NCBI RefSeq assembly: GCF_036507355.1
Contig: NZ_AP027884.1
Strand: one strand, 5' to 3'
Origin: Escherichia coli
GTDB taxonomy: Bacteria; Pseudomonadota; Gammaproteobacteria; Enterobacterales; Enterobacteriaceae
DNA: 4,112 nucleotides
The notes under the pieces were generated by a model. It had not been told where the DNA came from, did not search any database, and worked only from the letters and a program-made list of their open reading frames with translations. The position numbers were made by a program, and so were the translations under genes. Of the stretch, positions 318 through 4,112 are shown piece after piece (position 1 is the first letter of the stretch; each line of letters begins with the position of its first letter).

Positions 318-369
318 GCATCTGGCGTGTAACGGATGTTGCTAGAATACGGTTATTAATCGTTACAGG

Positions 370-1038
370 CTAATAAAAAGACCTGTTTAACTTATTTTTA
401 TATTCAAGTATAGATCTTTTTATTATATGATACGAGGAGGAAAAGATAACGGCTATAATTAACGTTAGAGCCATAATTAAAGCTGGTTTATACTTTTTAT
501 TCACTATTTCATTATTTATTGAAATGAAGTTTTTTTCTCCGGTGGTGTTTATTTTTGTTAATAATGCAACTTTTGCATATGTTTCAGTGCCATTTATATA
601 GTTGCTGTCCTGGTTGTTAACTATGCTTTTATAAGTTTTATAATCTTGGATGTACCAGTCATCAATAGCTTTATGGATAGCGTTTACTTCAGCGGTAATC
701 AGTGGTTTGTAACGGTCATCACCAGCCCATGACAGGATTATTTTTTTTCCTTTTTCATCTATATTTGATGTTATAGACTTGCTTTTATTGTTTATAATTG
801 ATTGTATGATATTCGCTTTACAATAAAAGTCAGACCCACAGTTAATAATCATACTTGGTGAATTAGCGATCATATTTAATTCGTACTTTATATTTATTTT
901 GTTTTTGTTTATCAGTAAGAAAATAGATGACAAAATCAATGAGAAAACAACAAACAAAATAATACTCACGATTTTTTTCTTAAGAAAGAGAAATAACTCG
1001 ATGAAATCAATATCAGGTGAATTGTTTTCCATTTTCAT
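370..1038 (-). CDS. Short Wzz/Cld-like polysaccharide co-polymerase family protein (222 aa, bitopic membrane protein: N-terminal TM, about 140-aa periplasmic domain, C-terminal TM)
   Basis: A 669-nt ORF in roughly 25% GC DNA, where stop codons are frequent, is very unlikely by chance. The N-terminus MKMENNSPDIDFIELFLFLKKKIVSIILFVV parallels the Wzz motif M..ENN...IDLI(D/E)LL.QLW.GK..II followed by a TM helix. The C-terminus KPALIMALTLIIAVIF plus short basic tail parallels the Wzz C-terminal P-rich/TM segment. Hydrophobic stretches at about residues 23-43 and 186-206. Confidence 0.55.
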   Translation of the reverse strand: MKMENNSPDIDFIELFLFLKKKIVSIILFVVFSLILSSIFLLINKNKINIKYELNMIANSPSMIINCGSDFYCKANIIQSIINNKSKSITSNIDEKGKKIILSWAGDDRYKPLITAEVNAIHKAIDDWYIQDYKTYKSIVNNQDSNYINGTETYAKVALLTKINTTGEKNFISINNEIVNKKYKPALIMALTLIIAVIFSSSYHIIKRSILEYKNKLNRSFY

Positions 1039-1130
1039 ATACCAACAATAGTTATTAAATTATAGCTTAAATAAATAAATAAAATTAAAATAGCCGTGAT
1101 GAATATTTTCGCTGATTTAGTATATTTCAT
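1035..1130 (-). CDS. 31-aa hydrophobic micro-protein (MKYTKSAKIFITAILILFIYLSYNLITIVGI), predicted single TM; stop overlaps the Wzz-like start (ATGA)
   Basis: Hand translation of the minus strand: ATG at complement of 1128..1130; TGA stop shares 2 nt with the ATG of the 370..1038 ORF, the arrangement typical of translational coupling. Below the ORF-track size cutoff. Confidence 0.45.
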   Translation of the reverse strand: MKYTKSAKIFITAILILFIYLSYNLITIVGI

Positions 1131-1282
1131 TTTAAAATCCAATCAAATAAAAACATTTTACCTATTATTTAGGTGTGAGAAAACTCCTAAAATCAATTTT
1201 TTTTTGTTTGTTTTTTGTTCGGTTATGTCTATGGAGAGAGTTGTTATCAGCCTGTATCCTTTCCACATATTTTAAGATCTTC

Positions 1283-1311
1283 TTGAGATCCTTGTGTTAC
1301 AGCCGTAATCT
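1283..1311 (+). promoter_or_regulatory. ColE1-type RNA II (primer) promoter: -35 TTGAGA (1283..1288), 17-bp spacer, -10 TAATCT (1306..1311)
   Basis: Position and sequence correspond to the pMB1/ColE1 RNA II promoter (ttcttgagatcc...gcgtaatct). Confidence 0.75.
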
Positions 1312-1318
1312 CTTGGTC

Positions 1319-1426
1319 TGAAAACGAAAAAACCACCCGGCAAGGTGGTTTTTCGAAGGTTCATTAAACCGGCAAGTTTATGAACCGTGGTAACAGGGTG
1401 TACAAGACCGCTGCCACCAAAATCGT
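1319..1426 (-). ncRNA. RNAI: RNA I antisense copy-number control RNA (about 108 nt)
   Basis: Complementary to the 5' region of RNA II. The 5' end is placed by alignment to the pMB1 RNA I start (ACAGUAUUUGG, here ACGAUUUUGG). The 3' stem-loop ACCACC-loop-GGTGG plus U-tract lies at 1325..1350. Confidence 0.8.
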
Positions 1427-2164: not shown

Positions 2165-2314
2165 ATGCCATCTGAATATGATGAACAACTGGATTCGACT
2201 GATACGCAGCTTCCCGGCGAATATGACCTTTTTGATTTAATGGCGCAGGTTACTGAAGAGAACCTGCACGCCCCGGTGGATTTTGGGCCGCCTGTCGGCC
2301 GTGAAGTGTTATAG
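2165..2314 (+). CDS. Hypothetical small acidic protein, 49 aa (MPSEYDEQLDSTDTQLPGEYDLFDLMAQVTEENLHAPVDFGPPVGREVL)
   Basis: Hand-translated ORF immediately downstream of the bom-like segment; no clear Shine-Dalgarno; no recognised family. Could be a chance ORF. Confidence 0.25.
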   Translation: MPSEYDEQLDSTDTQLPGEYDLFDLMAQVTEENLHAPVDFGPPVGREVL

Positions 2315-2338
2315 CTTTTTCGCTTATCCGCGTACGTG

Positions 2339-2413
2339 GTAATACGCCGGTATTACATCTTATTTCTTTATTTTCATGTAATTACAGGTGGTTGTAATAC
2401 GTTGCGTATTACA
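2339..2413. promoter_or_regulatory. Cluster of three palindromic operator-like sites sharing a GTAATAC/TGTAAT half-site
   Basis: GTAATAC-gccg-GTATTAC (2339..2356); TGTAATTACA (2377..2386); TGTAATACG-ttg-CGTATTACA (2393..2413). All arms are perfect. Confidence 0.5.
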
Positions 2414-2580
2414 TAAATAAACGGGGACTTCAGTTTTTACCTTTTAATTCATGCAATTGCGATGAAAATCGCGGTTGCGTATGGTGTATGACCATTTAAG
2501 GGATAATGTAACCTGACTTTTAAAGAATGAATCTATCTTTGGTAGCGCATGAGATCGATAAAAAGCGTTCCACATCAGGC

Positions 2581-2600
2581 GGTTCATGGATACATGAACC
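2581..2600. promoter_or_regulatory. Perfect palindrome GGTTCATG-gata-CATGAACC
   Basis: 8-bp perfect inverted arms with 4-bp spacer, immediately upstream of the phased direct-repeat array. Confidence 0.45.
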
Positions 2601-2603
2601 GGA

Positions 2604-2684
2604 AAGGACAAAAATAAGACAATTGTAGGACATTTTTTGCGTTTTACTCTTATTTTTGGACTATTATGAGACAAATGTAAGACA
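2604..2684 (+). repeat. Iteron/operator-like array: two sets of three 7-bp direct repeats (consensus T-R-R-GACA) at exact 11-bp spacing, separated by a 30-bp gap
   Basis: AAGGACA 2604, TAAGACA 2615, TAGGACA 2626; TTGGACT 2656, TGAGACA 2667, TAAGACA 2678. Spacing of about one helical turn; the array ends 14 bp before the ATG at 2698. Confidence 0.6.
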
Positions 2685-2697
2685 TTATGGGCGGTAT

Positions 2698-3066
2698 ATG
2701 GCGAATTTTAACCCTGGTCCAAGAACAGCCATTGCAGCTGTCAGGGATTCCAAGAACGATATAGAAACCTGGAAGAAAAATGGTATCCGTAGGGAAGAGA
2801 TTGTGACTGTACTGAATAAACGTTACGGCCTGAATATCTCACTGGTTGCGTTTGATAAGGCTCTTTACAGATTGAGAAAAAGTACAGATGAACCGTCTCT
2901 TGCTGATGTGGATTCTGTGTCTGCTGCAGAAACGAATTTCTCTGAAGCCAGTGGGCCTGAAAATGGTTTTTTTCTGTCCGGGAATGACTTCATGCGAGCA
3001 GAAGAAGAATCTCAAAGAATGGTTGAGTCATTCAGAGATAGCCTTGGCAGGAAGAAAGGATTCTGA
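2698..3066 (+). CDS. Hypothetical protein, 122 aa from ATG 2698 (ORF track extends to a TTG at 2656); basic N-terminal half, acidic C-terminal tail; possible DNA-binding protein
   Basis: Open frame of 120+ codons directly downstream of the phased repeats; N-terminal segment NGIRREEIVTVLNKRYGLNISLVAFDKALYRLRK is HTH-like by eye; no family recognised with confidence. Confidence 0.5.
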   Translation: MANFNPGPRTAIAAVRDSKNDIETWKKNGIRREEIVTVLNKRYGLNISLVAFDKALYRLRKSTDEPSLADVDSVSAAETNFSEASGPENGFFLSGNDFMRAEEESQRMVESFRDSLGRKKGF

Positions 3067-3272
3067 TTTTGAATTCTAAGTAGTGAAATAGTGGATCCTC
3101 TACTCGAAATTGTCGGATACCTGCAATTACCTACCGTGCCTTACGGCTTGGTCAATGCCTCACGGCCACGCAATAAATTGCGTCCCCGTTCACCGTTTTC
3201 GGATAAGAAGAACATCGGAAACAGGACTTACCCCGGCTGAATGGCGTGAATTTCCGCGCTATGCACTTGCGC

Positions 3273-3458: not shown

Positions 3459-3503
3459 CTATGAGTTAGCCATATTTTCGTGCGAATTTTTCATCGGAAT
3501 CGC

Positions 3504-3526
3504 GGTGATGACTCCAACTTACTGAT
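3504..3526. repeat. IS1 terminal inverted repeat (IRR)
   Basis: GGTGATGACTCCAACTTACTGAT, the canonical IS1 terminus. Confidence 0.85.
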
Positions 3527-3914
3527 AGTGTTTTATGTTCAGATAATGCCCGATGACTTTGTCATGCAGCTCCACCGATTTTGAAAACGACAGTGACTTC
3601 CGTCCCAGCCTTGCCAGATGTTGCCTCAGATTCAGGTTATGCCGCTCAATGCGCTGCGTATATCGCTTGCTGATAACGTGCAGTTCTCCCTTCAGGCGTG
3701 ATTCATAAAGCGGCCAGCCATCCGTCATCCATACCACGACCTCAAAGTCCGACAGCAGGCTCAGAAGACGCTCCAGTGTGGCCAGAGTGCGTTCACCGAA
3801 TACGTGCGCCACAACCGTCCTCCGAATCCTGTCATACGCGTAAAACAACCAGCGCTGGCGTGATTTAGCGCCGACGTAACCCCGCTGTTCGTCCATTTCA
3901 GCGCAGACAATCAC
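3519..3914 (-). CDS. insB: IS1 InsB (shown from first in-frame ATG; in IS1 the transposase is the InsAB' fusion made by -1 frameshift at the A6C motif, here complement of about 3959..3967)
   Basis: ORF-track protein [28 protein letters not shown]...HYLNIKHYQ matches IS1 InsB; the TTAAAAAAC slippery motif is present on the minus strand just upstream. Confidence 0.9.
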
Positions 3915-3940
3915 ATCACCGCCCGGTTGTATGCGCTAGG

Positions 3941-4112
3941 TTACCGACTGCGGCCTGAGTTTTTTAAGTGACGTAAAACCGTGTTGAGGCCAACGCCCAT
4001 AATGCGTGCACTGGCGCGACATCCGACGCCATTCATGGCCATATCAATGATTTTCTGGTGCGTACCGGGCTGAGAGGCGGTGTAAGTGAACTGTAGTTGC
4101 CATGTTTTACGG
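3941..4112 (-). CDS. insA: IS1 InsA, 3' portion (stop codon = complement of 3941..3943)
   Basis: The frame continues from the window start; 34 codons + 1 junction codon + 57 codons gives 91 aa plus stop, the InsA length. C-terminal sequence ...[16 protein letters not shown] is followed by TAA. Confidence 0.85.

Follow-up and report, generated by a model that had tools for sequence, protein, structure and literature searches.

Among the described systems closest to the one reported here are a chain-length regulator of the polysaccharide co-polymerase (PCP) type and small membrane peptides that act on Wzy or PCP machinery, in each case encoded on mobile elements. Wzz(pHS-2) of Shigella flexneri is a PCP-1 chain-length regulator encoded on a 3-kb plasmid, from which it acts in trans on the chromosomal O-antigen machinery (PMC12004945). 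The 31-aa Iap of phage D3 acts on Wzy through mimicry of a Wzz transmembrane (TM) segment (PMC12004945), and Klebsiella has a small membrane protein, RmpD, whose binding partner is the PCP Wzc (PMC12648545). The stretch of DNA analysed here (the window, 4112 bp, contig NZ_AP027884.1 of Escherichia coli) is a complete circular ColE1-type plasmid, 99.6% identical across all 4112 bp to E. coli p713Rt_4 (NZ_CP080073.1), and next to its origin it carries a conserved accessory module (279–1275) consisting of an AT-rich core (346–1275) with a GC-rich hairpin region at its left end. The core holds two minus-strand genes, a large gene (370–1038) predicted to encode a mini-PCP-like protein of the family of E. 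coli YkgH and, upstream of it, a small open reading frame (ORF; 1035–1130) for a peptide of 31 residues with a single predicted TM helix. The reading we favour, with a rough probability of 0.4, is that the mini-PCP and the peptide, made from a two-gene operon, modulate the chain length of host glycans linked to undecaprenyl phosphate (Und-P), and the most likely function appears to be that of a trans-acting modulator of host O-antigen or enterobacterial common antigen (ECA) polymerisation. Database records already hold the genes as hypothetical proteins. The novelty lies in the connection to the PCP fold, in that to YkgH and in a conserved small ORF that lacks annotation, and with these three the function becomes directly testable.

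Read from the ATG at 1038 the large gene encodes 222 aa; most relatives have ATA in place of this first ATG, and the conserved start is therefore the ATG at 1032 (220 aa). A match to the GNVR domain (Pfam PF13807) covers residues 134–208 (E = 4.8e-9) and there is a weak one to the Wzz N-terminal domain (PF02706, E = 0.024); among 16 family members GNVR was found at 0.1 or better in 10 and Wzz in 13, the best Wzz value being 4.6e-9. The N-terminal motif and TM1 align with those of full-length WzzB (PDB 6rbg). An AlphaFold2 model made from 28 sequences (pLDDT 85.9) has TM1 at residues 23–43, a domain at 47–181 that the predicted membrane orientation would place in the periplasm, and TM2 at 185–221; the domain is modelled as compact alpha/beta with one helix of 35 residues (108–142) as its longest. 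Foldseek matched the model to KpsE, WzzE and Wzc at a probability of about 1 and, in the AlphaFold database (AFDB), to Wzz models of 300–325 aa at TM-scores of 0.6–0.7, and the only folds matched over the full length were those of PCPs. As modelled, the periplasmic domain has a PCP fold. The ratio of nonsynonymous to synonymous substitution rates (dN/dS) against relatives is about 0.2, indicating purifying selection on the gene. The periplasmic domain contains two cysteines, C67 and C73 (C-x5-C; ~820–840, minus strand), that at least 90% of family members share, YkgH among them, and this suggests a periplasmic disulfide.

On sequence comparison the large protein is distantly paralogous to the uncharacterised YkgH (b0310) of the E. 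coli inner membrane, with 26% identity over 216 residues (BLASTP E = 5e-28). YkgH likewise has 222 aa, two TM helices, the periplasmic cysteine pair and a gene that is AT-rich relative to its neighbours, and AFDB models of the YkgH family superpose on the model of the window protein at TM-scores of 0.8–0.9. It differs in being chromosomal and in having no 31-aa ORF upstream, and the plasmid form is a separate divergent clade (G+C content 0.28, against 0.37 for ykgH). The matched E. coli gene is annotated ykgH and adjoins ykgG/F/E, and of 5426 complete E. coli genomes 5155 contain its DNA. When 1.84 billion representative proteins were searched exhaustively with HMMER only 34 matches were obtained, about a dozen of them full-length (211–236 aa); YkgH was among these 34 (profile E = 4.3e-24) and canonical Wzz was not. 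The other members are chromosomal, described as ‘hypothetical’ or ‘GNVR domain-containing’, and come from Salmonella enterica, the Citrobacter freundii complex, Providencia, Hafnia and Kosakonia, with a relative from Morganella known by its AFDB label, so that the detectable relatives with named hosts are all from Enterobacterales.

The small ORF is listed as 35 codons starting at a TTG, and an internal ATG gives the 31-aa peptide MKYTKSAKIFITAILILFIYLSYNLITIVGI. Its stop codon overlaps the start of the large gene (ATGA), while in most relatives the stop is TAA and the conserved large-gene ATG follows two bases on. No intact plasmid copy departs from the length of 31 codons, dN/dS is about 0.3 in comparisons of higher divergence, and among the changes are some at third positions and a synonymous AGC to TCC exchange in a serine codon. 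This pattern argues that the ORF is real and under purifying selection, and the description of the segment in an earlier note on this DNA as a two-gene membrane-protein cassette on the minus strand is borne out. The small ORF is annotated in none of the records examined; it is a conserved small membrane protein missed by current annotation pipelines. In more distant loci peptides of the form M[KR]YT..A[KR].F end 0–10 nt from the start of the large gene. They were found in Kosakonia (L011, L026 and L028; peptide MKYTIPAKLFFG..., large protein 41–45% identical to that of the window), a ColE1-type contig (L013; (L)KYTTAAMAF..., 40%), a Providencia-type locus (L018; MRYTIGAKFL..., 29%), a metagenome contig (L016; MRYTFSAKVF..., 27%), a Salmonella-type locus (L029; MKKYTFAARAF..., 22%) and Citrobacter (L032; MKYTLSAKIF..., 18%). 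As similar peptides stand beside large genes that have diverged so widely, the sequences indicate that peptide and mini-PCP are an old two-gene unit, although the peptide ORF is absent upstream of E. coli ykgH and of a few other members. When each peptide was compared with TM2 of its own partner and the scores of six pairs were summed, the KY-x19-Y register was best (83 against 23 for the next, with 83 reached in 1.95% of column shuffles). Alignments of single pairs were mostly not significant and the resemblance was not confirmed in two further pairs found later (p = 0.05 and 0.21), and the idea that the peptide may be a mimic of its partner's TM2 is only a lead.

The earlier note had placed an AT-rich island at 345–1250, and the contrast in composition is plain: the G+C content is 0.270 there and 0.488 in the rest of the window (0.440 overall), a deficit of about 13 binomial standard deviations, and in the large ORF it is 0.27, 0.26 and 0.31 at codon positions 1, 2 and 3. 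The left limit held for the AT-rich segment, as the 906-bp stretch of lowest G+C begins at 342 and a two-state likelihood segmentation gave 346–1275, but the right limit was about 25 bp short and the module as a whole reaches left to about 279. A query across the right edge (1150–1750) matches more than 5000 ColE1-type plasmids, and in those without the cassette homology starts at query position 123–127 (1272–1276 of the window); as this coincides with the change point in composition at 1275, the right border was set at about 1275. It lies 8 bp upstream of a sequence (TTGAGA–17 nt–TAATCT, 1283–1311, plus strand) read by us as, and taken to be, the RNA II promoter of pMB1/ColE1, an assignment that agrees with the position of RNAI and with the start of homology to ColE1 plasmids. 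A query across the left edge (160–420) matches only 40 plasmids, all 40 of which have the gene, and the shortest stretch common to the matches begins at 279–285. The two border queries together therefore give a module of about 279–1275.

This module was found in about 40 of 72 556 plasmid records (sizes 3.0–9.6 kb) from eight genera, Escherichia, Salmonella, Shigella, Klebsiella, Enterobacter, Citrobacter, Leclercia and Kluyvera, and among complete E. coli genomes in 21 of 5426, where it is always plasmid-borne and never chromosomal. With more than 5000 plasmids sharing the origin and only about 40 carrying the module, it is accessory cargo and not part of the common ColE1 backbone. Within its own sub-lineage it always adjoins the origin in the same orientation, the 40%-identical variant L013 likewise adjoins ColE1 RNAI/RNAII sequence, and there it behaves almost like backbone; on the side away from the origin the neighbour is often IS1. 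Co-divergence of cassette and origin was considered and rejected, as the identities are mosaic: L003, for example, is 97.5% identical in the cassette and 81.7% in the RNAI/RNAII region, and because the two do not track each other we conclude that recombination has shuffled them. The same gene pair forms an AT-rich islet of about 1 kb in Kosakonia chromosomes and has therefore moved horizontally. We regard the module as a self-contained, horizontally mobile two-gene operon that is the cargo of one ColE1-type sub-lineage, and in this the proposal of horizontally acquired cargo stands. The low-GC donor proposed with it does not: none was found, the gene G+C content is 0.29–0.37 in all family members measured, each AT-rich relative to its surroundings, and as the detectable relatives are all from Enterobacterales low G+C looks like a family trait rather than the mark of a donor. 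Two entries filed under other hosts, a contig in a metagenome-assembled genome of Erysipelotrichia (L024, SAAR01000840.1) and a protein under Streptococcus pneumoniae (P0002), are short contigs of the same enterobacterial plasmid, and these labels are probably binning or contamination errors. Literature searches for this cassette on small plasmids found nothing.

Two carrier plasmids depart from the usual arrangement. One (L004, NZ_CP138403.1, 7167 bp) has two origin-plus-cassette blocks and resembles a heterodimer, with the large gene of one block broken into fragments of 44 and 150 aa. The other, a 9.6-kb Citrobacter plasmid (L010, NZ_CP073010.1), has Tn5403 (Tn3 family) inside the 31-aa ORF, at the equivalent of ~1115–1120 of the window, and the transposon parts the large gene from its upstream region.

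If the mini-PCP and the peptide do modulate chain length, the steps might be as follows. Translation of the 31-residue single-pass peptide would be coupled to that of the 220/222-residue mini-PCP, in which the Wzz-like N-terminal motif with TM1, a compact periplasmic domain and a GNVR-type TM2 are combined and one short periplasmic helix would stand in for the long helical hairpin of Wzz. Expressed from a multicopy plasmid, the mini-PCP would oligomerise in the inner membrane as other PCPs do, with the peptide as partner, and its TM helices would engage the host machinery for polymerising Und-P-linked glycans, either an O-antigen Wzy/Wzz system or the ECA system (WzyE/WzzE). The outcome would be an altered chain-length distribution of the surface glycan. 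We infer that the ECA system would be an attractive target, because the plasmid crosses genera with differing O-antigen polymerases and ECA is conserved in all of them.

Of the systems introduced above, Wzz(pHS-2) offers a parallel as a PCP-type protein alone on a very small enterobacterial plasmid, and it has an N-terminal Wzz motif and a GNVR-type TM2 in common with the window protein, a likeness noted from features and not from direct alignment of the two sequences. Wzz(pHS-2) is a FepE-like Wzz of full length, at well over 300 aa, and its periplasmic helices are long, in contrast to a window protein of 220/222 aa that fails the FepE/WzzB models (17.6 bits, cut-offs 267–300) and has a small partner ORF. 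Iap and RmpD resemble the peptide in that they are very small, cross the membrane once, come from mobile elements and target Wzy/PCP machinery, and Iap has the same length of 31 aa; both were likened to it by description and not by sequence comparison. The two act alone against the PCP of the host whereas the window peptide is co-encoded with a PCP-like protein. The Gram-positive PCP-2b adaptors (CapA, CpsC and TkmA; TIGR01006) are similar in size (~220–250 aa), in having two TM helices and in their short extracytoplasmic domain, and models of this kind from bacilli are among the AFDB matches of the window protein. The TM-scores to these bacillus models (~0.45–0.5) are nevertheless below those to Gram-negative Wzz models, and the window protein has no TIGR01006 match and no adjacent gene for a bacterial tyrosine kinase (BY-kinase), such a gene being absent both from the 4.1-kb plasmid and from the homologue neighbourhoods examined.

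Several observations weigh against a role in glycan chain length. The window protein scores 17.6 bits on the curated WzzB model (NF012015, cut-off 267) and has no match to the curated FepE and WzzE models, and its relatives score 17–53 bits on the three models (cut-offs 267–332). The long periplasmic helical hairpin typical of canonical Wzz (~325–380 aa) is absent from the model of a protein that is 100–150 residues shorter. Where the classic PCP motif is rich in Pro and Gly, TM2 of the window protein contains one proline (KKYKPALIM...) and lacks glycine; other family members have a glycine in this helix (LSLIxGxI). Membership of the canonical WzzB/FepE/WzzE group was accordingly rejected, on grounds of size, model scores and the missing hairpin. 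Most chromosomal homologues are solitary and lie in unrelated neighbourhoods, and the cassette itself has no glycan gene, so that gene context points to no pathway; neither eleven contig look-ups nor a scan of 100 044 species genomes found a recurrent neighbour gene of the homologues. The literature on YkgH consists of passing mentions (a single-nucleotide polymorphism in an L-form strain, an entry in the list from a curli screen, and use as a landmark for an island or integration site). The Tn5403 insertion described above indicates that the operon can be lost.

As to neighbours, one homologue lies near an HMW1C-like glycosyltransferase. Another, P0099, on a metagenome contig (L012, 5062–8663), adjoins a Wzy_C/PglL-type protein, and this single glycan-related neighbour counts in favour of a glycan role. 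P0099 is encoded directly downstream of this 605-aa protein and of a ScsC/DsbA-like thioredoxin, in a locus whose flanks hold a fimbrial operon, a gene for a reverse transcriptase and one for the A subunit of a pertussis-like toxin. It is the only family member seen beside a gene of the glycan ligase or polymerase type, and it has no small ORF upstream.

Three rival explanations were weighed, all of which are ranked below modulation of glycan chain length. The one that survives best, and which we regard as doubtful though far from negligible, is that the two proteins form an inner-membrane complex unrelated to polysaccharide length, which might block the entry of phage or colicins or change envelope properties, with the PCP-like fold serving as a scaffold. 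The points just listed give it substance, in that the chromosomal homologues are solitary and outside glycan loci, the hallmark long helices are missing and TM2 of the window protein departs from the Pro/Gly motif; the appearance of ykgH in the curli screen and the L-form mutant also hints at a general envelope role, and small ColE1 plasmids often bear defence or immunity cargo. What tells against it is that full-length fold matches were confined to PCPs, and that no match was found to any of 5027 PADLOC defence models and no homologue in 50 697 phage records. The PADLOC and phage results, together with the lack of a meaningful PHROG match, led us to reject a defence system, and of the two roles suggested in the earlier note, phage exclusion and surface modification, the former finds no backing while the latter fits the predicted PCP fold of the large protein.

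An improbable alternative is a plasmid-addiction module, in which the peptide would be a membrane toxin of the Hok/TisB/Ldr type, neutralised by the downstream protein or by an antisense RNA, and would stabilise a plasmid that lacks a partition system. Judged from its sequence the peptide resembles typical type I toxins in size and hydrophobicity, and the cassette is found on high-copy plasmids with little other cargo. Yet conservation of the pair extends to chromosomes of Salmonella, Citrobacter and Kosakonia, the peptide ORF lies upstream of its partner and is coupled to it in translation, an arrangement that suggests subunits made together, and the large protein exists without the peptide, as YkgH of E. 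coli. Furthermore, the plasmid with the small ORF split by Tn5403 persists, and no antisense promoter or RNA stands out, RNAI being the only RNA family found in the window. The least credible proposal, that the AT-rich DNA acts in cis (as curved, H-NS-binding or UP-like DNA) to tune replication from upstream of the RNA II promoter with the ORFs incidental, would account for a segment that always abuts this promoter and never changes orientation, the 40%-identity variant included, but more than 5000 ColE1 origins function without it, both ORFs are conserved in length with dN/dS of 0.2–0.3, and chromosomes have this gene pair too, far from any origin.

Modulation of glycan chain length, the reading preferred here, can be taken further. 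In a bolder version that we consider unlikely, YkgH-type proteins would be an unrecognised fourth style of PCP with a dedicated 31-residue peptide, and one version, spread among Enterobacteriaceae by ColE1 plasmids, would re-tune or inhibit O-antigen or ECA polymerisation in trans. If this were so the plasmid, like Wzz(pHS-2) and the Iap of phage D3 combined, would help its host to evade phage, serum or immunity, and the E. coli y-gene ykgH would acquire a function. Small ColE1 plasmids tend to be written off as cryptic, but this one has a conserved operon, under selection, that has spread through at least eight enterobacterial genera. Were O-antigen or ECA length altered by it, it would be a portable surface-remodelling device of relevance to phage therapy, serotyping and host immunity, and YkgH, whose gene is in about 95% of complete E. 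coli genomes, would gain a first testable function.

Expression signals for the operon were sought on both sides of the gene pair. Plasmid clades, the 40%-identity variant and Kosakonia chromosomes all have the conserved sequence TTAGGAGTTTTCyTA...TAnAnT upstream of the small ORF. It is plausible that this is the operon promoter, at 1183–1155 on the minus strand, with TTTTCT (1183–1178) as a −35-like element, a spacer of 17 nt and TAAAAT (1160–1155) as the −10, preceded by the conserved TTAGGAG motif. The generic promoter scan did not call this site, and generic promoter and terminator scans gave sites no more numerous than in shuffled sequence. RNAI (1324–1425, minus strand; Rfam RF00106, 101.6 bits, E = 3e-19) shares its direction of transcription with the cassette, and from its end to the putative promoter downstream there are about 140 nt. 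Downstream of the large gene a conserved GC-rich hairpin (290–316) lies in the ~50% G+C extension of the module to ~279, and it is kept in every cassette copy, including the 75% clade. Folding of the plus strand of 275–375 gave −35.3 kcal/mol (z = −3.2), while on the gene-sense strand the hairpin has a 7-bp stem and no U-tract (z = −2.0). It was not called by the terminator scan; it is a candidate terminator and possibly acts as one.

Elsewhere in the window a second, milder AT-rich stretch (2300–3100, G+C content 0.395) contains a 136-aa ORF (2656–3066, plus strand) that matches the plasmid stabilisation protein StbA_2, though below threshold (37.9 bits, cut-off 100), and also phrog_22342; it is annotated as hypothetical in related records. 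A 49-aa ORF (2165–2314, plus strand) is annotated in NZ_CP080073.1 as an AbrB/MazE/SpoVT-family DNA-binding protein, but the only match was a weak one to the C-terminal part of MazE (E = 0.007) and a toxin partner was not evident. As the window is a complete circular plasmid, its IS1 is split between the two ends (~3498–4112 plus 1–159), and in near-identical records the transposase is annotated as a pseudogene with a frameshift and an internal stop. The junction of IS1 with the cassette falls at two different points in related plasmids, 159/160 and 278/279, and the chromosomal ykgH is interrupted by IS1 in several E. coli strains; these junctions and interruptions suggest that such AT-rich genes or their edges are a recurrent target of IS1.

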